A stretch of DNA of 64,000 nt, taken from sequence record OR352956.1, one strand, 5' to 3'. Below the pieces are notes generated by a model. The model saw nothing but the letters and a program-made list of their open reading frames with translations, did not search any database and was not told the DNA's origin. Origin of the DNA: Escherichia phage AV126. The first letter of the stretch is position 1. Each line of letters opens with the position of its first letter. Below, piece after piece: positions 6,504-41,192 of the stretch. Made by a program: the position numbers and the translations under genes.

Positions 6504-6701
6504 TTACACTTTTTCCCAAGTACCAAAAGCACAGGAAGGGTAGATTCCAACTTGAGGGTTTCCGTTATCATCTTTGAAAGTAAAACTGTTGTTGTCTTTA
6601 TCAAGAACTGTAGAATAAATCTTACCAACAGTAACGCAGTTGGAAGCTTGACCCAGTTCAGTGAGAGTAAGACATTTCATTTTCTGTTTCTTTGTAGCCA
6701 T
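6504..6701 (-). CDS. hypothetical protein (65 aa)
   Basis: ORF in gene-dense minus block. Confidence 0.45.
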   Translation of the reverse strand: MATKKQKMKCLTLTELGQASNCVTVGKIYSTVLDKDNNSFTFKDDNGNPQVGIYPSCAFGTWEKV

Positions 6702-6783
6702 TTATAAAATCTCCTTAGTAAGTGAATCTTTATTCTACACAAAGAGCTTTGCACATGTCAAGTAACTCTTTGTCAGATTAGTC

Positions 6784-10170: not shown

Positions 10171-10347
10171 ATGTCTGAATTCTTCACAATGGCTTTCTTA
10201 GGGATCTATCTGATTATTAGTGCTGTTGGCTTAATCATGTCTCTAATAGAGGAAATGGGAATTAAGTGGAATTGTGCATTCGGTATAGCTCTTATGCTCA
10301 CTCCAGTTTGGATTTACATTTGCAAATCGGTTGAACTAATTGGTTAA
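10171..10347 (+). CDS. hypothetical small membrane protein (58 aa)
   Basis: ATG at 10171 after GGAGC; hydrophobic stretch FLGIYLIISAVGLIMSLI. Confidence 0.45.
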   Translation: MSEFFTMAFLGIYLIISAVGLIMSLIEEMGIKWNCAFGIALMLTPVWIYICKSVELIG

Positions 10348-11134: not shown

Positions 11135-11299
11135 ATGATTTTAAACTTCATCATCAACTTGTGTTTGACATTGGGATTACTCTGTGCAATAGTATCCCCT
11201 CTGGTTGGTGAATATTGTTCTGAACTGGCGATGTTTATAGTTCTTGGTGCGGCTATTGCTAATATGTTTGTCGCTGCGATTTGTATGTTGTGGGAATAG
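11135..11299 (+). CDS. hypothetical small membrane protein (54 aa)
   Basis: ATG at 11135 after AAGGAGAG; hydrophobic throughout; below ORF-track length cut-off. Confidence 0.4.
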   Translation: MILNFIINLCLTLGLLCAIVSPLVGEYCSELAMFIVLGAAIANMFVAAICMLWE

Positions 11300-15537: not shown

Positions 15538-15670
15538 TCCTATACAAACCCTTGTCTTTTTCAGTTTGCATCACTAGGATTCGATCTGAGTGGGTTCCTG
15601 AAGGTCTGCCAATAAGATTAAAGGTTATCTCAAATTCCCACTACCTATTATCTCAAAAATCCCTCAAATT

Positions 15671-15737
15671 ATTTAAACTTTTTAAGAATTTACAAAAGTG
15701 AAAGTTGAAAACCAAAATTTAAAGTTTAGGAAAAATT
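15671..15737. repeat. ~67-bp AT-rich direct repeat, copy 1
   Basis: ATTTAAACTTTTTAAGAATTTACAAAAGTGAAAGTTGAAAACCAAAATTTAAAGTTTAGGAAAAATT; about 80% identical to copy at 15809-15875. Confidence 0.7.
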
Positions 15738-15808
15738 ATCTTAGAATGTTAGATACAAACAAAACTCAAAAGTCAAGGAAAATTTTAAAAATTTTGCGCG
15801 CCCACAGT

Positions 15809-15875
15809 ATTTAAAGTTTTTTTGCTTTTACAAAAATGAAAGTACAAAAGCAAAATTTAAAGTTTACAAAAATTT
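15809..15875. repeat. ~67-bp AT-rich direct repeat, copy 2
   Basis: ATTTAAAGTTTTTTTGCTTTTACAAAAATGAAAGTACAAAAGCAAAATTTAAAGTTTACAAAAATTT. Confidence 0.7.
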
Positions 15876-15908
15876 ATGCAGGTGGGAATGAGAAGAGTTC
15901 TCATGTGG

Positions 15909-15935
15909 AAATGCAAATGATAATGATTCGCATTT
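15909..15935. promoter_or_regulatory. Fur-box-like palindromic operator
   Basis: AAATGCAAATGATAATGATTCGCATTT; core TGATAATgATTcgCA matches the 7-1-7 Fur consensus TGATAATnATTATCA at 12/14. Confidence 0.45.
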
Positions 15936-15951
15936 AAGTTTATAAACGAGA

Positions 15952-15993
15952 TTGATTCTTATTCAATAAGGTAAATGATAATCATTCTCATTT
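15952..15993 (+). promoter_or_regulatory. sigma70-like promoter overlapped by Fur-box-like operator
   Basis: TTGATT -35, 17-nt spacer, ATGATA/GATAAT -10 region; operator AAATGATAATCATTCTCATTT (13/14 to 7-1-7 Fur consensus) overlaps the -10. Confidence 0.5.
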
Positions 15994-16221
15994 AGAGAAT
16001 GACGCGCAGGGGCGGTGTTTGTCTCGCGCTCCCGTGTCCCCTCGCCATGTAATAAGAATAACAGATCCAACCAGGAAAGCAAGCGATTATTTTATCTTTA
16101 CATTTCTTTACAAATATATAGCGCCCAGCCTACCGGCGATCAACCTTCCAACCAGCGCCCCTGGTATGTTAGCCCCGCCTTTACGCCGTGGGGTGGCGCT
16201 TCCTCTTCTGTATGTAAAACA

Positions 16222-17600: not shown

Positions 17601-18158
17601 ATGGGCCGCGAATATGTGATCCAGTCTTGGGTAAAACATGAAGCAGATGATCCGCGCATCATTCCCGATCATCTTATCGATGAATCCACGGGATATAGCG
17701 GTGAGCAAATAGGTAACAGATTAGCACGTAGTAACGGCAACGTAAAAGCGCGTTATGTGCGCCCTGGCTGGCTGGCAAATGGTAACGCTGATTTATCCAG
17801 TGCGGAAGATGCAAGCGACGGCGCGAAAGATAATCCTTTGTACAAAATTGATCCGGCTTTTCGTGTCCTGGATGAATACCCCAGCAAGATAGCGGCGCTT
17901 GATGAAGCATTGGAAAGTAAGCGCATCACCTGGACCGCTTACAACATGGCAAAAAACGTACTTGATGGTAAATTGATTCAAGCTGAAAGAAAATTAGCCA
18001 AAATTGCAGCCATAGCCCAGGAGGAAGACGAGGAGACAACGGAAGAGGAAGAGTACGAAGAGATCCCGCCGTTGTTGTGTATTGATGCTTTTCCTGATTA
18101 TCAGCCGACAGAGGAAGAAAAAAGGATCGCACTAGAAAACTTTGAAAATAGTCTTTGA
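17601..18158 (+). CDS. hypothetical acidic protein (185 aa)
   Basis: ATG at 17601 after AAGGTGG; its TGA stop lies inside the next TTGACA -35. Confidence 0.55.
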   Translation: MGREYVIQSWVKHEADDPRIIPDHLIDESTGYSGEQIGNRLARSNGNVKARYVRPGWLANGNADLSSAEDASDGAKDNPLYKIDPAFRVLDEYPSKIAALDEALESKRITWTAYNMAKNVLDGKLIQAERKLAKIAAIAQEEDEETTEEEEYEEIPPLLCIDAFPDYQPTEEEKRIALENFENSL

Positions 18159-18212
18159 CATATCGCCGCCACTGGCATAATATTTACCACGTAGGGCGGC
18201 AATGGTGCCGCT
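18155..18212 (+). promoter_or_regulatory. PeSL-like cassette 4
   Basis: TTGACA (contains TGA stop of upstream ORF) / TAATAT / GGGCGGCAATGGTGCCGCTC; peptide ORF at 18241. Confidence 0.65.
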
Positions 18213-18240
18213 CATAGTGAAATTATACAGGAGGTTTACA

Positions 18241-18336
18241 ATGATTAATAAAGAAAATAGCTTGACGGTTGGAACGATTAACGCTATCATTTTCGCCGTT
18301 CCATTTTGGGTTGTAGTAGCGGCTATTATTTTCTAA
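18241..18336 (+). CDS. hypothetical hydrophobic peptide (31 aa)
   Basis: ATG after AGGAGG, downstream of PeSL-like cassette; predicted single transmembrane segment. Confidence 0.35.
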   Translation: MINKENSLTVGTINAIIFAVPFWVVVAAIIF

Positions 18337-18344
18337 AAAATATT

Positions 18345-18406
18345 CTTGACAACGTTTTTTAATCTGATAAGATGTATCACATAGGGCGGCGGAATACTTC
18401 CCCGCC
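18345..18406 (+). promoter_or_regulatory. PeSL-like cassette 5
   Basis: TTGACA / TGaTAAGAT / hairpin; ORF at 18428. Confidence 0.65.
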
Positions 18407-18427
18407 AAAACAAAAAAGGGTAACACA

Positions 18428-18790
18428 ATGAGCAAGCAAATCAATACTATCATGTTTAATCTGGTATCTTTCCGCGATGATATGAAAAATTTACCACGTG
18501 AAACGGTTGATATTCATGTTTCAGCTTATCGCGCCCTTATTGATATGTTACCGCTAAAACGTGATCAACATGCCGCTAATATGATGCTTAATGCTATGCT
18601 TAAAAAGATGATTCAAACGGATCTTACTCTGGCATATGAGTATCAAGGGCGCTTATATGCTACTTACAACAAAGCGGTACCTGGTCTGGGAAGTACCGAA
18701 GAGTTGCACGGCTTAAACCTGGATCAGAACACTTGGGATAGTATGCGCCGCGTTATGGTATGGGCCGAAAGCGGTAAAATTTACGAATAA
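18428..18790 (+). CDS. hypothetical protein (120 aa)
   Basis: Downstream of PeSL-like cassette. Confidence 0.55.
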   Translation: MSKQINTIMFNLVSFRDDMKNLPRETVDIHVSAYRALIDMLPLKRDQHAANMMLNAMLKKMIQTDLTLAYEYQGRLYATYNKAVPGLGSTEELHGLNLDQNTWDSMRRVMVWAESGKIYE

Positions 18791-18796
18791 AAACGG

Positions 18797-18856
18797 TTGA
18801 CACTGTTTAAAATGCTGGTATAGTTTATCACATAGGGCGGGAAGTGGTTTCCCGCC
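18797..18856 (+). promoter_or_regulatory. PeSL-like cassette 6
   Basis: TTGACA / TATAGT / GGGCGGGAAGTGGTTTCCCGCC; ORF at 18879. Confidence 0.65.
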
Positions 18857-18878
18857 AACAATGAAAAAGGTTATCATC

Positions 18879-19244
18879 ATGGCTATTAATATTAATGTTT
18901 CCGCTTATGCTACCCTGGCTAACACGGCTAAAATTGAATTATCCAGCATTGAGGCGGTGCATATTAGCGCCCGTCGCTGGTTTCAACAGTCCTACGGTAA
19001 CACGTATTTTTCTTTAATGGTTGACGTTGAGATCGGCGGTAAACTGATCGAGGTGGTTAACGTTCCGTTTCAATATGGCTATGGTGATCATTTTGATACC
19101 GTCGCCCTGGAAGAATTTAGCAAGGTTATCAACCTTGAGGGCAAGGAATTTTCACGCGGCGCGTATCTTTCCCGTTTTTGCCGTGACAATGGGATCACTG
19201 TATACAGTCATGCAAGCGATGTTAAACGTAAAAAAGATCTATAA
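18879..19244 (+). CDS. hypothetical protein (about 121 aa)
   Basis: Downstream of PeSL-like cassette; ATG 18879 preferred over 18861. Confidence 0.5.
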   Translation: MAININVSAYATLANTAKIELSSIEAVHISARRWFQQSYGNTYFSLMVDVEIGGKLIEVVNVPFQYGYGDHFDTVALEEFSKVINLEGKEFSRGAYLSRFCRDNGITVYSHASDVKRKKDL

Positions 19245-19250
19245 AAAGCA

Positions 19251-19310
19251 TTGACAGCACGAATAAAAAGAGTAAACTGTATTACATAGAGAGCGGGAAC
19301 ACTTCCCGCC
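19251..19310 (+). promoter_or_regulatory. PeSL-like cassette 7
   Basis: TTGACA / TAAACT / GAGCGGGAACACTTCCCGCC; ORF at 19334. Confidence 0.65.
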
Positions 19311-19333
19311 TCACTGAAAAAGAGAGAAAAATC

Positions 19334-19573
19334 ATGGCTAAATCTAAAATGTACAACGGTCACAAAAACAAAACTCATTGGAATGTAAGCCTGTGGATTA
19401 ATAACGATGAGGGATTGTATCGGTTTGCATTGGGATTGATCAATGAGTGCGGTAATAAAGATCAGGCGGCTGATTTAATGTGCTACCGTTTGAAACAGGA
19501 TGGAATCACTACAACGCCAGACGGCTTTAAGTATAGTAAAACTGCAATCCGCGCCGCTATGGTTGGAATGTAA
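19334..19573 (+). CDS. hypothetical protein (79 aa)
   Basis: Downstream of PeSL-like cassette. Confidence 0.55.
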   Translation: MAKSKMYNGHKNKTHWNVSLWINNDEGLYRFALGLINECGNKDQAADLMCYRLKQDGITTTPDGFKYSKTAIRAAMVGM

Positions 19574-19582
19574 TAAAAACAG

Positions 19583-19642
19583 TTGACAACGTTTAAAATT
19601 AGTGTAAGATGTATCACATAGGGCGGGAAGTGGTTTCCCGCC
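19583..19642 (+). promoter_or_regulatory. PeSL-like cassette 8
   Basis: TTGACA / TGTAAGAT / GGGCGGGAAGTGGTTTCCCGCC; ORF at 19665. Confidence 0.65.
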
Positions 19643-19664
19643 AACAACAGAGAGATTAAAGATT

Positions 19665-19892
19665 ATGGCTATCAATATTGTTCGTGTATCCGGCACCGTT
19701 GGCAGTTCCCAGGTTGTAGCAGTTGTAACAAACAAAAAGATTAATGATGTATGTGAGATCTTGAATAAGTGGGCTATTGCTAATTTTGGGGAATATGCAA
19801 GCGTTGAGTACATCGAATCCTACCAGGTGCCGACCATCAGCCTAACCGATCTCAACGTTGATCGCCTGTTATGCCTGGATGAATTAATCTGA
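19665..19892 (+). CDS. hypothetical protein (75 aa)
   Basis: Downstream of PeSL-like cassette. Confidence 0.55.
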   Translation: MAINIVRVSGTVGSSQVVAVVTNKKINDVCEILNKWAIANFGEYASVEYIESYQVPTISLTDLNVDRLLCLDELI

Positions 19893-19901
19893 AAAAGATT
19901 G

Positions 19902-19959
19902 TTGACACGGGAAAGAAAAAGAGTAAACTGTATTACGTAGGGCGGCAATAGTGCCGCTC
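19902..19959 (+). promoter_or_regulatory. PeSL-like cassette 9
   Basis: TTGACA / TAAACT / GGGCGGCAATAGTGCCGCTC; ORF at 19983. Confidence 0.65.
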
Positions 19960-19982
19960 ACAACAGAAGAGAGATTATCACG

Positions 19983-20198
19983 ATGGCTAATATCCGTACA
20001 CTGTTAAAAAATGCAAGTCAAGTTTTATTTTCAGATGACGAGTATTTCAACAAAGACATTACAGGCGTGAAAAATTTAAAAGACGTGAAGGATGTTATCG
20101 GTATCCGTGGATCTTTACGTAAAGGTGATATATACGGTAACAAGGTGCAATATAAACTGTCAAAAGATTATGATTTTACTTTGACAATTATTTCATAA
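19983..20198 (+). CDS. hypothetical protein (71 aa)
   Basis: Downstream of PeSL-like cassette. Confidence 0.55.
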   Translation: MANIRTLLKNASQVLFSDDEYFNKDITGVKNLKDVKDVIGIRGSLRKGDIYGNKVQYKLSKDYDFTLTIIS

Positions 20199-20204
20199 AA
20201 CCGC

Positions 20205-20266
20205 TTGCAATCTTAATAAAATAAAGTAAACTGTATTACATCAAGGCGGCGGAATGGTCCACCGCC
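20205..20266 (+). promoter_or_regulatory. PeSL-like cassette 10
   Basis: TTGCAA / TAAACT / AGGCGGCGGAATGGTCCACCGCCT; ORF at 20291. Confidence 0.55.
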
Positions 20267-20290
20267 TAACAAAGAGAAGAGGAAAATATT

Positions 20291-20458
20291 ATGATCACTT
20301 TCGCTACCCGTGAAGCCGCTCGCAACGTTGCCCGTAAAGTTAACGCCGCCAACCTGGGCGCTACACTTAAAGCCCCGGTAAAAGATGCATCAGGCGCGTG
20401 GATCTTCCCTGGTCTGCGTCACGCTGATAAGCTAGGCACTTTAAGCCTTAAAAAATAA
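20291..20458 (+). CDS. hypothetical small basic protein (55 aa)
   Basis: ATG after GAGGAAAA downstream of PeSL-like cassette; shares MITFA start with next ORF. Confidence 0.4.
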   Translation: MITFATREAARNVARKVNAANLGATLKAPVKDASGAWIFPGLRHADKLGTLSLKK

Positions 20459-20461
20459 TCG

Positions 20462-20500
20462 TTGACTTTTCGTTATAGCGCCTTATAATGGGCGCTATAG
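20462..20500 (+). promoter_or_regulatory. promoter cassette 11 (variant; hairpin overlaps -10)
   Basis: TTGACT / TATAAT flanked by inverted repeat ATAGCGCC...GGCGCTAT; ORF at 20533. Confidence 0.55.
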
Positions 20501-20532
20501 AGAAGAGAAACCACTACTAACAAGGAAACATC

Positions 20533-20754
20533 ATGATCACTTTCGCTATTGTCGCCGTTGTCGCTGGTCAGGTTTACGTAAACGAGACATTTACTACAGA
20601 AGACAAGGCCGCAGGAGATATAACCGCCGTTTACAACGAGTGCAAGGCAGTAGAAAGGATGTTAGCGCCTTGTATGCTAATGAGTGAACGCCAGGACGGG
20701 ATAACAGTATTTACTAACATTGAAACAGGGTACCAAATGGTAGTAACAAAATAA
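20533..20754 (+). CDS. hypothetical protein (73 aa)
   Basis: Downstream of variant promoter cassette. Confidence 0.5.
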   Translation: MITFAIVAVVAGQVYVNETFTTEDKAAGDITAVYNECKAVERMLAPCMLMSERQDGITVFTNIETGYQMVVTK

Positions 20755-20757
20755 AGC

Positions 20758-20814
20758 TTGACACGGATTTAATTTTCAGTAAACTGTTACACGTAGGGCG
20801 GGAATAGTTCCCGC
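20758..20814 (+). promoter_or_regulatory. PeSL-like cassette 12
   Basis: TTGACA / TAAACT / GGGCGGGAATAGTTCCCGCTC; ORF at 20834. Confidence 0.65.
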
Positions 20815-20833
20815 TCAAAAAGAGAGAAAGACT

Positions 20834-21187
20834 ATGAAAGCACAAAATGCAATTAAAGAGTACATCCTTGCCGCTATCGATTTTAATGATTACGGTATTA
20901 CAACCGAAAAAGAGAAGATCGCGGAATTGATGCGCCGTTTTAATTCCGAGTACTGGTACCCTGATAACCAATCACGTTTTAATTATAGTATTGTTAAAGC
21001 ACTTGCATCATGGTTACAAGGTTTGCCATCAGATATCAATATCGCTTTCGAATATTGGGAAATTGATCGCCTGTTAACATCCTGGGGATACATTAAAGAG
21101 AATAGCCGCGATGATAAAATCCAACGAGAAAGGGAAAATTATTGGCTTTATATTGCAGGCGTGATCCTTGCTTGCTCTTATGAATGA
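20834..21187 (+). CDS. hypothetical protein (117 aa)
   Basis: Downstream of PeSL-like cassette. Confidence 0.55.
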   Translation: MKAQNAIKEYILAAIDFNDYGITTEKEKIAELMRRFNSEYWYPDNQSRFNYSIVKALASWLQGLPSDINIAFEYWEIDRLLTSWGYIKENSRDDKIQRERENYWLYIAGVILACSYE

Positions 21188-21193
21188 TAAACC

Positions 21194-21249
21194 TTGACAA
21201 TTTTACAAAACAGTTTAAATTAACAATATAGCGGCAATGGTGCCGCTCA
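21194..21249 (+). promoter_or_regulatory. PeSL-like cassette 13
   Basis: TTGACA / TTTAAAT / AGCGGCAATGGTGCCGCTC; ORF at 21267. Confidence 0.55.
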
Positions 21250-21266
21250 TATGAAGAGGAAACAAA

Positions 21267-21413
21267 ATGAATACATCTAATCGCGCAGAAAAAATTCAAT
21301 CTTCCAAGATCCGCAAGGCCTGGAACGAGGAAGTGATCCGCAAAGGCGACAAGCGTAATAAAACAAAGCGCGGGAAGAGTGACAAATATAATTGGATGGA
21401 TTTAGAGGATTAA
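21267..21413 (+). CDS. hypothetical small basic protein (48 aa)
   Basis: ATG after GAGGAAAC downstream of PeSL-like cassette; followed by terminator at 21421. Confidence 0.4.
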   Translation: MNTSNRAEKIQSSKIRKAWNEEVIRKGDKRNKTKRGKSDKYNWMDLED

Positions 21414-21420
21414 CATAACA

Positions 21421-21448
21421 AGGGCGCACCAAGCGCCCTTTCTTTTTA
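21421..21448 (+). terminator. rho-independent terminator
   Basis: AGGGCGCACCAAGCGCCCT + TTCTTTTT. Confidence 0.8.
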
Positions 21449-21468
21449 CATGTAGAGGATAAACAAAA

Positions 21469-21654
21469 ATGACTTTAAACGAGCTTAAAACAGCGTACAG
21501 CGCAACATTAAAAATAGCCGTGCGTTACCGTGACGAATACGGTTTTATTGCGCAGGGCGTGATCCTGGGCTTTTCTGACGATGGTTTGATCTATGTTGAT
21601 GCACATTATAACAAGGTTAAACCGGAAAACGTTATTAGCATAAAATATCTTTAA
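21469..21654 (+). CDS. hypothetical protein (61 aa)
   Basis: ORF after terminator; GAGGATAAACA upstream. Confidence 0.45.
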   Translation: MTLNELKTAYSATLKIAVRYRDEYGFIAQGVILGFSDDGLIYVDAHYNKVKPENVISIKYL

Positions 21655-21660
21655 AAACGG

Positions 21661-21720
21661 TTGACACCATAACCGGACCTGTTAAACTGTATTACATCAG
21701 GCGGGGAATAGTTCCCCACC
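21661..21720 (+). promoter_or_regulatory. PeSL-like cassette 14
   Basis: TTGACA / TAAACT / GGCGGGGAATAGTTCCCCACC; ORF at 21740. Confidence 0.65.
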
Positions 21721-21739
21721 ATACAAAAAGGTAAATATT

Positions 21740-21946
21740 ATGATCACCGCAAAACAAGAAAAAATCATTATCGACGTTGCAGCCGTTGCCGCTATCGCTA
21801 TTATTGGATCTTATTATGATACCCGTTTCCCGTCGGCTATGCATGAGGTCGCCGCCGTTGCATCAGTTGGCGTACTGTTTTACGTTGGTAAACGCTATTT
21901 ATCACCAATGATTAACAAGCTGACACCGTGGAAAAATAAAGGTTGA
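21740..21946 (+). CDS. hypothetical membrane protein (68 aa)
   Basis: Downstream of PeSL-like cassette; hydrophobic AAVAAIAIIGSYY. Confidence 0.5.
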   Translation: MITAKQEKIIIDVAAVAAIAIIGSYYDTRFPSAMHEVAAVASVGVLFYVGKRYLSPMINKLTPWKNKG

Positions 21947-21998
21947 TCCTGTTTTACATTGTGTTATAGTTATCGTGTAGGGCGGCAATGGTGCCGCG
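21943..21998 (+). promoter_or_regulatory. PeSL-like cassette 15
   Basis: TTGATC / TGtTATAGT / GGGCGGCAATGGTGCCGC; ORF at 22018. Confidence 0.55.
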
Positions 21999-22017
21999 CC
22001 CCTTTGAGGATGCAATC

Positions 22018-22302
22018 ATGAGTAAAGCTAACACCGTGCTAATGTTTTCCCTGATTAATGATCTCGCTTACTTGTCCAACATGACGCAGGAGGGTAACAC
22101 ATTAACGGCAACATTCACCAATAAGCTTGACCGAGTGATCATCGTCTCACTGAAAACAGTTAGTAAAGGCTTTTACTCGTTAGCTTATCATTGTATCACT
22201 GACACCGACGAGACAAGCCAGGACTATAGCGCCCCTTTCCCTGAATCAATGGCACGGGAGATCATCGCCGCCGTTGTAAATGATGGTTTGTTTACTGCAT
22301 AA
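22018..22302 (+). CDS. hypothetical protein (94 aa)
   Basis: ATG at 22018 after GAGGATG; ORF-track start at 21988 lies inside the cassette hairpin. Confidence 0.5.
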   Translation: MSKANTVLMFSLINDLAYLSNMTQEGNTLTATFTNKLDRVIIVSLKTVSKGFYSLAYHCITDTDETSQDYSAPFPESMAREIIAAVVNDGLFTA

Positions 22303-22319
22303 ATAATTTAGAAAAAGGC

Positions 22320-22376
22320 TTGCAATCATTTTGAGATAGTGTATATTTAATTCATAGGGCGGCGGGAATAGTTCCC
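22320..22376 (+). promoter_or_regulatory. PeSL-like cassette 16
   Basis: TTGCAA / TATATT / GGGCGGCGGGAATAGTTCCC; peptide ORF at 22400. Confidence 0.5.
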
Positions 22377-22399
22377 AAAGCAAACGAGAGGATTACACG

Positions 22400-22519
22400 A
22401 TGAGCAAGTACACAGTAGAATACACGGTAGAGAATCCGGCAGTATCCGAAGGTAAAAAGATGACATTTGCCATCAGTATAATCGCTTTCGTTGTCACTAT
22501 CTTATCAATCATCTTATAA
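22400..22519 (+). CDS. hypothetical hydrophobic peptide (39 aa)
   Basis: Downstream of PeSL-like cassette; C-terminal TM-like segment. Confidence 0.35.
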   Translation: MSKYTVEYTVENPAVSEGKKMTFAISIIAFVVTILSIIL

Positions 22520-22529
22520 GGTACACACC

Positions 22530-22691
22530 ATGAAAATAGCAGACATTATCAAAGAGATCGCCCTTGCCACTGGTATCGAGATCGAGGAAGTGATCGCGCT
22601 CAATCTTACAGAAAACGATTTGCGCAACTATGAAGCGGAAAGCGTGAAAGCAAGTGGCGCGGTCCTGGCATATAATCCGGCTAACAAATAG
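22530..22691 (+). CDS. hypothetical small protein (53 aa)
   Basis: First ATG of ORF-track ORF 22491..22691. Confidence 0.4.
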   Translation: MKIADIIKEIALATGIEIEEVIALNLTENDLRNYEAESVKASGAVLAYNPANK

Positions 22692-22692
22692 T

Positions 22693-22750
22693 TTGACAAG
22701 CTGAATCAACCTGATAAGATGTATGACATAGGGGCGACAAGCGCCCCGCC
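22693..22750 (+). promoter_or_regulatory. PeSL-like cassette 17
   Basis: TTGACA / TGaTAAGAT / GGGGCGACAAGCGCCCCGCC; ORF at 22772. Confidence 0.65.
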
Positions 22751-22771
22751 TAACAGAAGAGAGAAAAAATC

Positions 22772-23050
22772 ATGACCATCACCAAATTATCTACCGAAGA
22801 GATCACCAACATTCTGACTACTAATCTGCAAGATTGGAAGCGTGAAGCCGATTTGCAAGCGGTTTGCAAGCTGAATGTAGAGTTAACAGAAAGCGACATT
22901 GACGCCATTATTAACCCTGATTTCTATGATGCTATTCATGATGATTCTATTATCCTTGAAACACTATTAGATAATACTTGGATCAATCCCGATTTGGCAG
23001 CTTATGACCGTAGCGCCTTTATCACTATCCACAATATCTATAACCGTTAA
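22772..23050 (+). CDS. hypothetical protein (92 aa)
   Basis: Downstream of PeSL-like cassette. Confidence 0.55.
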   Translation: MTITKLSTEEITNILTTNLQDWKREADLQAVCKLNVELTESDIDAIINPDFYDAIHDDSIILETLLDNTWINPDLAAYDRSAFITIHNIYNR

Positions 23051-23172
23051 GGGGCGTAGCATGAATCCGAGAGATATGCAATCATGGAAAGGGTGCGACG
23101 ATCTAAGCGCCTTGCGCAATAAGTCAAGCCGTAACCTTAGACGGTTGGAAGCAAAGAAAAAGAAAAAATAGT

Positions 23173-23230
23173 TTGACAAGTCGGCTTAGTCTGGTAATAT
23201 GTATCTTGTAGGGCGGCAATGGTGCCGCTC
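23173..23230 (+). promoter_or_regulatory. PeSL-like cassette 18
   Basis: TTGACA / TGgTAATAT / GGGCGGCAATGGTGCCGCTC; ORF at 23250. Confidence 0.65.
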
Positions 23231-23249
23231 ACAAGAAGAGAGAAAAATC

Positions 23250-23534
23250 ATGGAAATCACAAAAAGCCTAACTAATTATGCAGCACGTCGCGGATTATGT
23301 TTAACCGTTGAAAACTTAGGGAAAGAAGACTTTTTGTGTTTTTGGGAGCTTGAAAATGATTGCGAGTGGATGTTTTCCTATTCTATCTGCGAAGATCAAA
23401 ACGGTTGTTTGTTAACCTGGCGCGGTAATATCTATTTACCGGAAGAAATTAAAGAAGAGTTACCAGGTACAATCATGACAGAGAGACAGCTTAAGGAAGT
23501 GATCAATTTTGTAGGGCAAAACATTAAAAAATAA
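23250..23534 (+). CDS. hypothetical protein (94 aa)
   Basis: ATG at 23250 after GAGAGAAAAA downstream of cassette. Confidence 0.5.
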   Translation: MEITKSLTNYAARRGLCLTVENLGKEDFLCFWELENDCEWMFSYSICEDQNGCLLTWRGNIYLPEEIKEELPGTIMTERQLKEVINFVGQNIKK

Positions 23535-23535
23535 T

Positions 23536-23597
23536 TTGACAGCACGCAAACAACGTAGTAAAGTTTACCACATAGGGCGGCGGAATGGTCCACCGCT
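23536..23597 (+). promoter_or_regulatory. PeSL-like cassette 19
   Basis: TTGACA / TAAAGT / GGGCGGCGGAATGGTCCACCGCTC; ORF at 23620. Confidence 0.65.
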
Positions 23598-23619
23598 CAC
23601 AACAGAAGAGAAACAAATC

Positions 23620-23790
23620 ATGATCCCGACTATGTTTTATGTATCGCGCAAAGGTCACAATATTTTTTGGTCTGAAGATTTAAATGAAGCCATGACGTTT
23701 GCCCGTGATCGTGTTGCTATCGGTGGCGTTAACATCACCGTAACCGATGAAAATGGCATTGAATACTATAACGGCGACGATGAAGAGTAA
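23620..23790 (+). CDS. hypothetical small protein (56 aa)
   Basis: ATG at 23620 downstream of cassette. Confidence 0.45.
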   Translation: MIPTMFYVSRKGHNIFWSEDLNEAMTFARDRVAIGGVNITVTDENGIEYYNGDDEE

Positions 23791-23856
23791 TTAATAAGGC
23801 GGGGAATACTTCCCGCCACGCAGTGAATTTTCCGTTTGGGAAGTAAAAAATAAATC

Positions 23857-23917
23857 TTGACGATAATTTGTTATCTGATAGAATGTATTTCGTAGGGCGG
23901 GGCAATAAGGCAACGCC
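23857..23917 (+). promoter_or_regulatory. PeSL-like cassette 20
   Basis: TTGACG / TGaTAGAAT / GGGCGGGGCAATAAGGCAACGCCC; peptide ORF at 23937. Confidence 0.55.
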
Positions 23918-23936
23918 CATTAATGAGGGTAGAATC

Positions 23937-24041
23937 ATGTTAGAGAAAATTTTCACGGTTGCAGTAGTTGGCCTGGCGTTATCGGTTGGAGTGGTTGCAA
24001 CTATGGCTAATATGATCCTATCTTCCCACGGTATCGGCTAA
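23937..24041 (+). CDS. hypothetical hydrophobic peptide (34 aa)
   Basis: Downstream of PeSL-like cassette; TM-like AVVGLALSVGVVATMANMIL. Confidence 0.35.
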   Translation: MLEKIFTVAVVGLALSVGVVATMANMILSSHGIG

Positions 24042-24051
24042 GGTGAAACAA

Positions 24052-24267
24052 ATGATCACGAATAAGACAGGTAAAACGGAATTTTTACGCGGCTTGCAAG
24101 TTGGTAAACCTGAGATCTGGCATTGTACTAAATCCGCGCATAATGAAATGAAAGATTTTACCGCTACTTTACAACGTGTTAAAATATCTATCACACAGAA
24201 AAAAGCCTTGTTAGTAGTAGAAAACGAGATCCCGCAAACTATTATTATTGTCGAGCGTACAGCATGA
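24052..24267 (+). CDS. hypothetical protein (71 aa)
   Basis: ATG 24052 after AAGGTG (ORF track starts at GTG 24043). Confidence 0.5.
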   Translation: MITNKTGKTEFLRGLQVGKPEIWHCTKSAHNEMKDFTATLQRVKISITQKKALLVVENEIPQTIIIVERTA

Positions 24268-24650
24268 AAACAGAAATCATTATTGAAATCATCAACGGTT
24301 ATAAAGAAGCCTTTATTTTTGCTGAATCAGCAAGGGATCATGAAGGTAATTTTATTGAAAACTTAGACGATTATGATTTTTCTCCTAGCGCGGACGAACG
24401 GATCGCCCAGGATGTAACAGCCTTTATTAATGCTAATCTTGCCGCTATCTCTGAGGCAATGAGCGACGGCGCAACAGCCAACCAGATCGGGAATGATTTA
24501 CATTTTACCCGTAACGGTCACGGCGTAGGCTTTTGGGATCGCCCTGAAATATACACCACTAACACGGCGAACCGCCTAACCAATGCAGCTAAGTTTATGC
24601 CGAACGTGTCGGCTTACATTGGTGAAGATAATTTGATTTATATTGAATAA
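24264..24650 (+). CDS. hypothetical protein (128 aa)
   Basis: ORF overlapping previous stop by 4 nt. Confidence 0.55.
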   Translation: MKTEIIIEIINGYKEAFIFAESARDHEGNFIENLDDYDFSPSADERIAQDVTAFINANLAAISEAMSDGATANQIGNDLHFTRNGHGVGFWDRPEIYTTNTANRLTNAAKFMPNVSAYIGEDNLIYIE

Positions 24651-24656
24651 AAAGTA

Positions 24657-24712
24657 TTGACACAGATCGCCAGTGTGCTAATATTTACCACGTAGGGCGG
24701 CAATGGTGCCGC
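24657..24712 (+). promoter_or_regulatory. PeSL-like cassette 21
   Basis: TTGACA / TGcTAATAT / GGGCGGCAATGGTGCCGCC; ORF at 24732. Confidence 0.65.
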
Positions 24713-24731
24713 CGATAATGAGGAAAGTAAA

Positions 24732-25031
24732 ATGGAAACTATCGCTATTGTTACCGTAGAAAAACTGGTTGTTGGTGATGTATTCGCGTTAATGGTGCCT
24801 AACAGCAGCAAGCTGGGCGCTTATGAAGTAATGGATCATAAAAATGAATCATTTGGCGACGGTTGCACAATGGCGGTAAAATCTTTAAAGGATGGAATCA
24901 TCCGCCAGGCTAACTGGCACAAAGGGAATCAAGTCGGTTTAATATCAGCTAATTTCTTGCCAGAAGAGCAAACGTTAGACCAACTATCAGGCGGTAAGAC
25001 GTTAGCCGAACTACTGGAAACAGCGATCTAA
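24732..25031 (+). CDS. hypothetical protein (99 aa)
   Basis: Downstream of PeSL-like cassette. Confidence 0.55.
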   Translation: METIAIVTVEKLVVGDVFALMVPNSSKLGAYEVMDHKNESFGDGCTMAVKSLKDGIIRQANWHKGNQVGLISANFLPEEQTLDQLSGGKTLAELLETAI

Positions 25032-25075
25032 TCAACAAAGGGGCGGCAACGCCCCACATCAGAAAGGAAAAGATT

Positions 25076-25312
25076 ATGAGTATTGCAACAGTATTAAACG
25101 CCGTTAAAACCGCTGAATCATCCGGCTTGCATGTTGAGCTTATAGATCAACCAGGTGGCGATCTCCTTGTCCAGGTTTACCCGCCGAAAGTAGGGGATGA
25201 TTATTATTGGGCTTATTCTGATACGTTCGAACAAGTAGACACGAAAGCGATCACGGCTTTTATTTTAAAAGCTATTGAAGAAAATAACTTTCATCATAAC
25301 ATCAATCAATAA
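25076..25312 (+). CDS. hypothetical protein (78 aa)
   Basis: ORF preceded by GC hairpin and AGGAAAAG. Confidence 0.5.
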   Translation: MSIATVLNAVKTAESSGLHVELIDQPGGDLLVQVYPPKVGDDYYWAYSDTFEQVDTKAITAFILKAIEENNFHHNINQ

Positions 25313-25366
25313 ACCATAAGCGGGGCGGTAACGCCCCATTAAACGCAATAGGAAGAGGATAGACGC

Positions 25367-25657
25367 ATGAAAAAGATGATCGCAGTAGTTGCCCTGGTTG
25401 TTGGTATTAACGCGCCTGTACTGGCTAATGAGTTGCCAGAATCCATCACGCTAACCGATATCAACGCAATAAACCGGATCGGCGTTAATTATCGCCTATG
25501 CCTTGCCGCTAAAACTTTCCAGGACGGCACGACAGAATACCACGGATTCGAGGGTATCCGCTGCGGTGAGCTTGCACGCGACCTTAAGGAAGATCCAGAC
25601 CTTGAGGCCATACCGATGACCGTAAACGGTAAAGCTTACGTAAACCGCCAACAATGA
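25367..25657 (+). CDS. hypothetical secreted protein (96 aa)
   Basis: Signal-peptide-like MKKMIAVVALVVGINAPVLA. Confidence 0.5.
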   Translation: MKKMIAVVALVVGINAPVLANELPESITLTDINAINRIGVNYRLCLAAKTFQDGTTEYHGFEGIRCGELARDLKEDPDLEAIPMTVNGKAYVNRQQ

Positions 25658-25788
25658 GAAAGATAATCATCACAATGGGGATCGTAGTAGCAACGCTGGC
25701 GCTTATCCCCTTCATGGTTGAACATGTGCTGATCAGTGTTGTCCTTGTAGTCAGTGACCTATTGGAAACGGTTGGCAACTGGTTTTAA
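25654..25788 (+). CDS. hypothetical hydrophobic peptide (44 aa)
   Basis: ATG overlapping previous stop; two TM-like segments. Confidence 0.35.
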   Translation: MRKIIITMGIVVATLALIPFMVEHVLISVVLVVSDLLETVGNWF

Positions 25789-25963
25789 GATAAATAAACA
25801 GGGCTTGTTTTTGTCCTGTTTTTTGTTATACTTATTGAACGGGCGGCACTTGGGAGCAGGTGAAGATAATCACCGGAAGATCCCGCTATATATCGATAGC
25901 TAATACCTATCAAACAACAAAACATCAAAGAGATAAACTATCAAATCTTTACAATCCTACCTA

Positions 25964-26020
25964 TTGACACCGGATCACGCTTACATTATTATTTATCACG
26001 TAGGGCGAGCAATACAGCAA
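25964..26020 (+). promoter_or_regulatory. promoter cassette 22 (degenerate hairpin)
   Basis: TTGACA / TACATT-TATTAT / GGGCGAGCAATACAGCAAGCCC; ORF at 26042. Confidence 0.5.
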
Positions 26021-27708: not shown

Positions 27709-27990
27709 ATTATATGTAATTACCAAGATCATAACATTAGCGCAATAACAATAATCATTACAATAATTACATAAGGAAACAATTAGCATAGCAATAATTA
27801 TGGGGGCAATGGGAGGATGATTATCATCATTCCGATACATTGCACACTATGCACATAATAAGATAAAAAGCAATAATCTTGGGGGCGAAATGTTACCGCC
27901 ACAGGCGGGAATGTTGAGCATCTTCTCTTAAACGTAAATAAAATCAGAAAATTCTTGATTTATTTTAGTTTTTATGTTAATAAACGTTTA

Positions 27991-28008
27991 AATAATAATC
28001 ATTCTCAT
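27991..28008. promoter_or_regulatory. Fur-box-like site
   Basis: AATAATAATCATTCTCAT; shares the 14-mer ATAATCATTCTCAT with the site at 15973-15993. Confidence 0.45.
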
Positions 28009-28148
28009 ATAAATAATAGTCTGCTTGTCATGAGCGGGATTAGTTGACATTGTTCCGTCATATGATGAAGTTGCCAAGCCATTGATAAATAAGTGTTTGT
28101 GTGATTTATAATCAAGTGGCCCACCTTGTCGCTACGTTGGCATGAGCC

Positions 28149-28190
28149 TTGCATAAGTCATTGAATACGAATGATAATTATTCTCATTCG
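28149..28190 (+). promoter_or_regulatory. sigma70-like promoter overlapped by Fur-box-like palindrome
   Basis: TTGCAT -35, ~18-nt spacer, GATAAT -10; 21-bp near-palindrome GAATGATAATTATTCTCATTC (13/14 to 7-1-7 Fur consensus) over the -10. Confidence 0.5.
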
Positions 28191-28529
28191 CATGATATTT
28201 GGGAATTGTCGCTGCGTGGACCTGACGGCCCGAAAATTCGCGTTAAGCACTTCTTACGTATGCGCCATGATTTTTGCCATATCATATTGATTCTATTAGA
28301 TATTCTTGCCATGATTGCCATGAAACAGGGTGTCCCGAAATAATCTCTCCCCGTAGATATTTTGGGTTACTTTTTATACAAGAGTGGGGTGTCAAAAATA
28401 ATCGGTATATATGGGATAATTGATAGGAATCCCCTATGATAATTCGATTGTAATTCCCTAAGATTGATCGTATGATGTTGGTGATTGATGATTGCCATGA
28501 AAGATGGCTAACGATGAGAGGAGATTATC

Positions 28530-36904: not shown

Positions 36905-37228
36905 ATGCAAGCAGTTGTTAACGAAGCTATTATGAACTTATCCTTCTTGTTAGCTGGTTTAGGAGGTGTTCTCATAGGTTTGGCTCTTATCTGGTGTATT
37001 CGTCGATTAATCGGGTACCGACAAAAAGGTGTTTCATGTTTTGTATCTTACAATTTTACAACTGCTTACAGCAATGAGGTTGGATCTGGTAATGCTCAAG
37101 CATTTTTACCAACATATCCTCCTACAGTAGAAGATATTCGAAACTTGGAAGTAGAACTTATGGGACTAGGTGATAACTATACATCTCTAGTTATTCAAAA
37201 TATTTTTCGACTAAAACAGGAGGCGTGA
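36905..37228 (+). CDS. hypothetical membrane protein (107 aa)
   Basis: TM-like LSFLLAGLGGVLIGLALIWCI. Confidence 0.5.
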   Translation: MQAVVNEAIMNLSFLLAGLGGVLIGLALIWCIRRLIGYRQKGVSCFVSYNFTTAYSNEVGSGNAQAFLPTYPPTVEDIRNLEVELMGLGDNYTSLVIQNIFRLKQEA

Positions 37229-40569: not shown

Positions 40570-40989
40570 ATGTTAGGTAAGATCAAAGCTTTTTTCAAAC
40601 GTATTATTGAAGGAAGTCCAACAGAAGGTGCATTAGGAAGATCTCTAACAGGAGAACCACTTTCCATAATTTCTATCAGTCGGTATGGTGGATATTCAAT
40701 TCGACAAACACCTTTAGGTATAGAAGGTAGTATGCTTTCTTGGACAATATCTCAAGTTGGTGATAACAGACTTGCAGCTATAGCGTTACTTCGTGGGGAG
40801 TATGACCACTGTTTATCAGCATCTTGTAAAAAGCACCTCATAGAGCACATTAGAGACAGAGTAGAAAGAGAAGGCGGATACTTCTTCGAAACTAAGAGAA
40901 ACGAACAAGGAACTCTTGACTTCACTAAGGTTTACTGGGACAATCATACTCGTCAAACTGTTGAACAACTTCTGGAGGAAAGATGTTAA
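40570..40989 (+). CDS. hypothetical protein (139 aa)
   Basis: AAGGGGGA SD. Confidence 0.5.
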   Translation: MLGKIKAFFKRIIEGSPTEGALGRSLTGEPLSIISISRYGGYSIRQTPLGIEGSMLSWTISQVGDNRLAAIALLRGEYDHCLSASCKKHLIEHIRDRVEREGGYFFETKRNEQGTLDFTKVYWDNHTRQTVEQLLEERC

Positions 40990-41192
40990 AAGCTTTTGCT
41001 ATATACTCTACTGTAGGATTCTTTTATTGGATTATAGTTATTGTCGGATGTTGGTTAGGTTCTTGTGTTGTGATGGGAGAATGGTTAACATACAATGTAT
41101 TCGAATGGGATGTAGTTTGTAGATCATTACTTGTTATATGGACTGCTATTGTTTGTTGGATAACTGTTAGTCTAACATTAGATCTATATTGA
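40983..41192 (+). CDS. hypothetical membrane protein (69 aa)
   Basis: Two TM-like segments. Confidence 0.45.
   Translation: MLKAFAIYSTVGFFYWIIVIVGCWLGSCVVMGEWLTYNVFEWDVVCRSLLVIWTAIVCWITVSLTLDLY

Follow-up and report, generated by a model that had tools for sequence, protein, structure and literature searches.

Conserved genes for four predicted single-helix membrane peptides in the small-gene array of Escherichia phage AV126

Introduction

Small membrane proteins account for a large uncharacterised share of phage early gene sets, and in the few cases investigated so far, those of T4 Imm and PhiNM1 Gp11, specific phage or host targets came to light. The 64,000-nt stretch of Escherichia phage AV126 analysed here (sequence record OR352956.1; referred to below as the window) contains four short open reading frames (ORFs), designated O1–O4, which a first-pass annotation had described as cassette-driven and as encoding peptides of 31–44 aa that consist of one or two transmembrane helices. 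Roles in superinfection exclusion, as toxins or holin-like factors, or as modulators of host membrane complexes had been considered for them. Are these ORFs genuine genes and, if so, how might their products act? All four are located on the + strand, begin with ATG and coincide exactly with the positions and sizes given in that annotation:

18241..18336, + strand: O1, 31-aa peptide MINKENSLTVGTINAIIFAVPFWVVVAAIIF, ATG start
22400..22519, + strand: O2, 39-aa peptide MSKYTVEYTVENPAVSEGKKMTFAISIIAFVVTILSIIL, ATG start
23937..24041, + strand: O3, 34-aa peptide, predicted to be single-pass, MLEKIFTVAVVGLALSVGVVATMANMILSSHGIG, ATG start
25654..25788, + strand: O4, 44-aa peptide MRKIIITMGIVVATLALIPFMVEHVLISVVLVVSDLLETVGNWF, ATG start

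Jointly, the data are best read as pointing to four genuine genes for single-helix inner-membrane peptides, which would be produced early and act by binding specific partners; we favour this reading with moderate confidence. Two leads emerge from the analysis: the motif family of O2, present in unrelated enterobacterial phages, and the coupled pair formed by O4 and a 96-aa protein of predicted periplasmic location.

Results and Discussion

Coding capacity and conservation of O1–O4

Searches with tblastn against a database of 50,697 phage records returned 113 phage records for O1, 165 for O2, 156 for O3 (148 of them at ≥90% identity at the amino acid level) and 135 for O4. Homologous loci were fetched from Phapecoctavirus, Justusliebigvirus, Vequintavirus and other phages, and every homologue compared has an uninterrupted sense frame (10/10 for O1, 9/9 for O2, 12/12 for O3 and 8/8 for O4). 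The ATG is kept throughout, and so is the Shine-Dalgarno sequence; in the case of O4, what is kept instead is its place immediately 3′ of the upstream stop codon. None of the alternative frames is open in all homologues, stops being present in some or all of them; the best alternative, the antisense frame sharing the wobble position, is open in 5/10 (O1), 4/9 (O2), 3/12 (O3) and 0/8 (O4) cases. Pooled pairwise pN/pS values in the sense frame are 0.32 for O1, 0.49 for O2, 0.23 for O3 and 0.40 for O4, each the lowest of the six frames. A minimum-event count over 11–18 distinct DNA versions gave omega values of 0.25–0.34 (∼0.30 for O1 and ∼0.25 for O3), with an excess of synonymous changes (binomial p from 1.5e-5 to 2e-16).

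Each peptide contains a single strongly hydrophobic segment, with the best 19-residue Kyte-Doolittle mean ranging from 2.34 to 2.69. The expectation of one helix thus stood, and that of two did not: there is one hydrophobic segment in each peptide, and O4 was modelled by AlphaFold2 as a single helix. Among the other six-frame ORFs of 30–49 aa in the window, hydropathy of at least 2.3 is found in only 5 of 258 (1.9%). Since the frames are kept, synonymous changes are in excess and such hydrophobicity is rare, we conclude that O1–O4 are genes rather than chance ORFs: they code for protein, and purifying selection acts on them in Phapecoctavirus, Justusliebigvirus and Vequintavirus alike. The four represent unrelated families, and no family match was obtained for any of them in Pfam (E ≤ 1), NCBIfam or PADLOC.

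The peptide products might still be irrelevant if the ORFs were chance frames, or leader cistrons loading ribosomes for the genes that start at 22530 (in the case of O2) and 24052 (in the case of O3). Consistent with this, O2 and O3 each lie 10 nt upstream of another small gene, and the ORFs are left unannotated in many genome records. However, constraint is seen at the amino acid level in all four, and equal hydrophobicity is rare in random ORFs. Furthermore, O2-family members at 33–50% identity keep both their motif and their anchor though the downstream genes differ, while no further cistron comes after O1 or O4 in its unit: a new promoter, at 18346, follows straight after the stop codon of O1, and O4 is followed by a terminator. 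We consider it highly improbable that the peptides themselves do not matter.

Genomic context and expression signals

The region 18000–26000 shares 93–97% DNA identity with Mt1B1_P17, tuntematon, ESCO37 and TSP7_1, and the records matching it number 231 altogether. For the window, DNA identity to Mt1B1_P17, tuntematon and ESCO13 is 94–97%. By sequence similarity the source phage is assigned to Phapecoctavirus-type myophages of the subfamily Stephanstirmvirinae, kin of phi92 and rV5. Among the records matching the region at ∼95% DNA identity are ∼19 labelled 'Campylobacter phage' (MG0656xx; e.g. B15 and A110a), which are probably mislabelled or co-isolated coliphages.

Small genes are densely packed on the + strand between ∼16.6 and 26 kb, and in front of most of these stands a recurring unit composed of TTGACA, 16–17 nt, TAnnnT, a GGGCGG...CCGCC stem-loop and a Shine-Dalgarno sequence. 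These promoter/stem-loop units are made up of the repeat families D1–D7, and 51 promoter-like sites were found where 27 were expected. Promoter-like matches also occur on the opposite strand. The following elements accompany the four ORFs:

18155..18183, + strand: O1 cassette promoter, TTGACA-17-TAATAT, 10/12 consensus positions, member of the repeated promoter family
18188..18219, + strand: GC-rich stem-loop at the 5′ end predicted for the O1 transcript, -17.3 kcal/mol, z = -2.99
22320..22347, + strand: promoter-like site ahead of O2, TTGCAA-16-TATATT, weaker, 9/12 positions
23857..23884, + strand: O3 cassette promoter, TTGACG-16-TAGAAT, extended -10 TG, 10/12 positions
23895..23918, + strand: stem-loop at the predicted 5′ end of the O3 mRNA, -16.8 kcal/mol, z = -3.6
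24657..24684, + strand: promoter of the four-gene unit ending in O4, with no other strong promoter before O4
25796..25829, + strand: intrinsic terminator after O4 (also given as 25796–25821), 9-bp stem and T-run, -14.9 kcal/mol, z = -4.7

The Shine-Dalgarno sequence of O1, AGGAGG at 18229–18234, lies 7 nt upstream of the start, and both it and the ATG are unpaired in the predicted fold of the 5′ untranslated region (UTR). The Shine-Dalgarno of O3 (GAGGGT), the first gene of a three-gene unit, is unpaired in the predicted 5′ UTR fold as well. O2 possesses a Shine-Dalgarno sequence, GAGAGGA, at 22386–22392; unlike in the intact cassettes of O1 and O3, its stem-loop (cassette 22352–22399) is degenerate or truncated (-7.8 kcal/mol, z = -0.38), which may reflect an older insertion or expression by read-through from upstream. 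O4 lacks a Shine-Dalgarno sequence and a promoter of its own. It is the fourth and last gene of its unit, its ATG overlaps the stop codon of the upstream 96-aa gene (ATGA), and it is positioned for translational coupling. The description of the ORFs as cassette-driven is thus accurate for O1–O3, each with its own sigma-70-type promoter, and has to be revised for O4, which belongs to the unit starting from the promoter at 24657. More generally, the view that these are phage-encoded membrane micro-proteins expressed from a promoter array is upheld by their conservation, purifying selection, ribosome-binding sites or coupling, and consensus promoters. Because strong ribosome-binding sites stand behind host-type consensus promoters, O1–O4 would be synthesized early by the host RNA polymerase.

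Upstream in-frame starts were considered for O1 (ATG 18202, inside the hairpin) and O3 (TTG 23868, inside the promoter) and rejected, neither being conserved in the homologues. When a 128-aa neighbour gene was used as an anchor in viral contigs, only three close relatives were recovered.

Six ORFs of less than 50 aa were picked from the gaps that separate longer genes on the array's coding strand, and four of them are O1–O4, a share far from what chance would give. The remaining two, 21267–21413 (48 aa) and 23061–23171 (36 aa, ending in KKKKK), encode strongly basic products, possess Shine-Dalgarno sequences and are called 'hypothetical protein' in relatives; they could be nucleic-acid or ribosome binders. 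More small predicted membrane proteins are encoded at 10171–10347, 11135–11299 and 21740–21946 (58, 54 and 69 aa; each has two hydrophobic segments), 40983–41192 (68 aa, phrog_30003) and 36905–37228 (107 aa, one segment), so that the phage would encode at least nine of ≤70 aa in the window. Other, unrelated 39-aa single-helix peptides are found in the Vequintavirus array of CarlMeissner (locus positions 2838–2957 and 6647–6766; MSTTRQHTKVTIIVCIIGYILAQ... and MTPKDKPRTDKARRVMVWLEIIALEILLG...), and micro-membrane proteins therefore seem to be recurrent and diverse in such arrays.

Conserved motifs and the mode of action

The invariant positions of the four families are motif or polar residues: KEN..G.INA in O1, VEY..NP.Y in O2, ATMANMILS..GIG in O3, and P19-F20 together with S34-D35-L36 in O4. 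In O1, for which no PHROG family was matched, the conserved N-terminal motif, K-E-N-x4-G-x-I-N-A, is followed by one predicted transmembrane segment. As it is not merely hydrophobicity that is preserved, binding to a specific partner seems a better explanation than general damage to the membrane.

Alternatively, the peptides might be general membrane-active agents, that is, either holin/antiholin-like proteins that time lysis or toxins of the Hok/TisB/Ldr type that depolarise the membrane, working through hydrophobicity and oligomerisation. Their size and single hydrophobic helix are indeed like those of type I toxins, a 'putative holin' is annotated in relatives at another place in the same array (bas48_0115), and the rV5 gene table has a 78-aa putative holin with two transmembrane domains (TMDs). 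Yet holins usually possess two to three TMDs and a charged C-terminus (PMC3606486), whereas each of the peptides considered here has one segment and O1–O3 lack a charged C-terminal tail: O1 and O2 end in the anchor, O3 ends in the uncharged SSHGIG, and only O4 has a tail, which is acidic. The search results do not favour such agents either, since no holin or toxin family was matched in Pfam or NCBIfam and PADLOC gave no match. In addition, the high early expression implied by the promoters fits poorly with depolarisation before replication, and the invariant polar or motif residues lie outside or within the helix. Finally, the genes are preceded by host-type promoters and belong to a small-gene array instead of a lysis cassette, with no lysin gene near the four ORFs. 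The holin-like or toxin-like roles considered previously are thus disfavoured by the missing family matches, the location outside a lysis cassette and the invariant polar and motif residues, and we regard them as rather unlikely.

O2 and its motif family

The layout of O2 is of the tail-anchor type, with an N-terminal motif, V[EQ]Y[ST][TV]xNP[AV]Y, basic residues and a predicted C-terminal transmembrane segment. The peptide is matched along its whole length (positions 1–39 of 39) by phrog_10979 ('membrane protein'; E = 5.9e-23), and its distribution is the widest of the four. Members of the family are 31–41 aa long and share the motif, one or more basic residues and a hydrophobic anchor as the end of the protein; V6, Y8, N12 and P13 are invariant in the family alignment (A1). 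They are found in Phapecoctavirus, Justusliebigvirus, Seunavirus, Rosemountvirus and Salmonella phage PMBT28, but also in the Cronobacter jumbo phage GAP32 (358,663 bp) and in a 371-kb contig. Altogether, 14 more loci with the O2-family layout, GAP32 included, were identified in viral contigs, and the family spans at least five unrelated phage groups. Since the flanking genes vary between these groups, the O2 gene seems to move on its own. Its neighbour in the window is a case in point:

22530..22691, + strand: 53-aa gene, 10 nt 3′ of O2 and in a shared transcription unit; phrog_35944, function unknown

This gene is unlinked to O2 in other phage groups.

Among 185,579 bacterial species genomes (one representative each) a single O2-family match was found, on a contig of a metagenome-assembled genome, and its peptide resembles Rosemountvirus-type members of the family. 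The family therefore appears to be essentially absent from bacterial genomes. Only four proteins were retrieved from a large protein database with O2 plus one extra upstream codon as the query, and an exhaustive search of cluster representatives with O2 yielded three matches, one of which, a 1558-aa protein, was discounted as it offered no aligned stretch. Micro-ORFs are apparently seldom called in protein cluster collections, so that absence from these tells little.

Because the basic residues precede the anchor, the N-terminal motif of O2 should face the cytoplasm, and it may contact a conserved host target at the cytoplasmic face of the membrane. The presence of the family in phages with unrelated virions and its absence from bacteria point to a conserved enterobacterial host factor as that target. 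An antisense ORF opposite O2 (22393–22512) was also considered and rejected; it is open in only 4/9 homologues and has no convincing promoter or Shine-Dalgarno sequence.

O3, the array gene with the widest retention

O3 is present in 8/8 comparison loci, at 74–100% identity, while most other array genes are absent from the fetched Vequintavirus loci. By these comparisons no other gene of the array is kept as widely as O3, which is also the most conserved of the four. In an alignment of eight sequences (A3), 23 of the 34 positions are invariant, including ATMANMILS, the C-terminal GIG and a polar Asn within the helix. Phrog_14631 matches O3 over positions 1–34 of 34 (E = 8.5e-22). The next gene of the unit is as follows:

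24052..24267, + strand: 71-aa soluble protein, 10 nt 3′ of O3; phrog_5988

Both genes stand together in CarlMeissner, FV3, alia, ZCKP1 and PsgM04F and on the metagenomic contig L003, but the 71-aa gene is absent beside O3 in phi92 and UPEC06 and is thus a frequent, not an obligate, neighbour.

O4 and its signal-peptide partner

O4 starts with MRK, its hydrophobic helix bears a charge at position 23, and its acidic tail, SDLLETVG, is conserved. A helical hairpin was considered and rejected, as AlphaFold2, run on the single sequence, gave one continuous helix covering residues 2–43 (pLDDT 94.5). The match to phrog_16005 extends over positions 1–44 of 44 (E = 2.1e-30). Immediately upstream lies its partner:

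25367..25657, + strand: gene for a 96-aa protein, O4's upstream partner; phrog_9845, 172 phage records

Features of this protein are a signal peptide of the cleavable type (…APVLA/NE) that lacks a lipobox, ∼75 mature residues and two nearly invariant cysteines. O4 is found directly 3′ of this gene, adjacent or overlapping, in 5/5 comparison loci having either of them, and both are missing from the other three; their positions match in further records. Given the positive-inside rule and the N-terminal MRK, the acidic tail of O4 would be periplasmic, alongside the partner, with MRK remaining inside. Most likely, O4 and the co-translated periplasmic protein would constitute a two-gene envelope module, in which O4 tethers or regulates its partner at the inner membrane. 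The possibility that the pair represents two-component spanins was rejected for want of a lipobox, the cleavage site having no cysteine; moreover, O4 has ∼20 residues beyond its first hydrophobic stretch instead of the long periplasmic domain of an inner-membrane spanin.

One or more of the peptides, with O3 and the O4 pair as the strongest candidates, might instead serve in superinfection exclusion: made early and located in the inner membrane or periplasm, they would keep a second phage of their lineage from penetrating the cell wall or delivering its DNA, as T4 Imm (membrane) and Spackle (periplasm) do. O1, O3 and O4 are found solely in Stephanstirmvirinae and Vequintavirinae, which have related virions, and O3 is retained in all of the comparison loci. 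The mature partner of O4, with its two cysteines, is of Spackle-like size, and T4 Imm works by binding the tape measure protein. Nevertheless, nothing in the sequences ties the peptides or the partner to Imm or Spackle: there was no Pfam match, and the partner's profile compared with PDB sequences gave nothing credible, the best hits (E 0.067) being to unrelated evasins. Nor does the low-confidence model of the partner, a beta-hairpin and a helix, lend support at the level of fold, Spackle being largely helical. For O2, its occurrence in phages with unrelated virions speaks against a lineage-specific entry block. Exclusion is therefore an explanation that we find unlikely overall, if worth keeping in mind for O3 and the O4 pair.

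Proposed function

Returning to partner binding by early inner-membrane peptides, we envisage that O1–O4 insert into the inner membrane and act there through a specific partner and not by general membrane damage. For O1 and O3, candidate partners are membrane proteins of the host and components of the entry machinery of the phage itself. Several points weigh against this reading. The genes neighbouring the four peptides match only PHROGs without assigned function and nothing in Pfam, NCBIfam or PADLOC. Insertion and topology are deduced from hydropathy values, from the positive-inside rule and from an AlphaFold model built on one sequence, and early timing from promoter sequence alone; a literature search for transcriptome or ribosome-profiling data on Phapecoctavirus or rV5-like phages found none. 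Conservation of particular residues would also be compatible with oligomeric pore formation. The AlphaFold2 model of the 96-aa partner is poor (pLDDT 57). As for coding capacity, the wobble-sharing antisense frame is likewise low in pN/pS, and the selection tests draw on 8–18 distinct, mutually related sequences, albeit with concordant results.

A bolder version of the proposal can also be formulated. O2 might be a mobile, shared effector that docks on a conserved enterobacterial protein located in the inner membrane or close to it, and the O4 pair an undescribed two-component envelope system, for example a new type of superinfection exclusion in rV5-like phages. We put this version forward only tentatively and consider it unlikely.

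Relation to existing annotations

The genes are already catalogued, and small phage membrane proteins are of a well-known kind; the value of the present analysis accordingly lies in prioritising experiments, not in discovery. The RefSeq entry of Mt1B1_P17 annotates O1 (JR327_gp031), O2 ('membrane protein') and O4, whereas O3 is missing from it and is annotated in CarlMeissner, FV3 and UPEC06. Annotated counterparts comprise Mt1B1_P17 gp031, gp016 and gp004, FV3 ORF157 and ORF160, and rV5 gp170 and gp173, and amino acid identity to the annotated homologous coding sequences is 80–100%. PHROG matches are full-length for O2–O4, with E from 1e-22 to 1e-30. A literature search found no study of the O1–O4 peptides.

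The 2013 gene table of rV5 lists gp170 (44 aa, 'membrane protein, 1 TMD') beside the 94-aa gp171, and gp173 (46 aa, 'membrane protein, 1 TMD') beside the 71-aa gp172. The gp170/gp171 and gp173/gp172 orders are those of O4 and its partner and of O3 and its neighbour, respectively. A homologue of another 71-aa gene of the window, 19983–20198, is labelled 'phosphoribosylpyrophosphate synthetase' in tuntematon, alia and UPEC06; the protein is too small for this label to be plausible, and it looks like a propagated annotation error.

Other features of the window

Three tandem palindromes of ∼21 nt with a 29-nt spacing, resembling the Escherichia coli Fur box, are located at 15887–15994. One of them, 15971–15989 (GTAAATGATAATCATTCTC), has three mismatches to GATAATGATAATCATTATC, and 0.02 such matches are expected by chance. 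Similar copies are found at 27989–28017 and 28168–28196, in a second ORF-poor stretch (∼27.1–28.6 kb). Judging from their sequence, the palindromes could be iron-responsive or other repressor sites in non-coding regions. The ORF-poor stretch that contains the first group also carries AT-rich 75-nt direct repeats (15665–15739 and 15803–15877; 81% identical).

Comparison with known systems

The annotated homologues in rV5-like phages are the same genes as O1–O4, distinguished from them by strain-level substitutions only and without assigned function. The array, too, has a described equivalent: the corresponding region of rV5 is described as "88 mainly small ORFs", and the rV5 genome paper reports 33 host-type promoters and 15 proteins with transmembrane domains (PMC3606486). 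In T4-type phages, PeSL cassettes, composed of an early promoter together with a stem-loop, flank small ORFan genes (PMC2839356). The array of AV126 resembles these in that repeated sigma-70-type promoters are joined to stable GC-rich stem-loops between small genes. It belongs to another phage lineage, however, and its stem-loops are placed just 3′ of the -10 box, where, unlike in PeSL, they would form the 5′ end of the transcript.

With respect to size and a single helix, O1–O4 are comparable to AcrZ, MgrB, MgtS, KdpF and CydX, peptides of 30–50 aa that tune larger membrane complexes by binding to them; these differ in being chromosomal, not phage-borne, and no NCBIfam match links them to the peptides described here.

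T4 Imm and Spackle offer a likeness as small early proteins of the inner membrane (Imm) and the periplasm (Spackle) which bind a component of the incoming phage. O4 and its 96-aa partner have the same two predicted locations, although in T4 the imm and sp genes are not known to be adjacent or coupled. Imm, a 9.3-kDa protein described with four helices, binds the tape measure protein (bioRxiv 10.64898/2026.03.06.709160); it is larger than O1–O4 and shares no sequence similarity with them. Spackle is a small periplasmic early protein (PMC7677548).

Gp11 of the Staphylococcus aureus phage PhiNM1 is an early small membrane protein that binds MurG and DivIC (PMC11237401). It acts in another host, belongs to another lineage and has a known target, and there is no homology to the peptides of AV126; specific host binding of the kind displayed by Gp11 is nonetheless the mode that we propose for O2.

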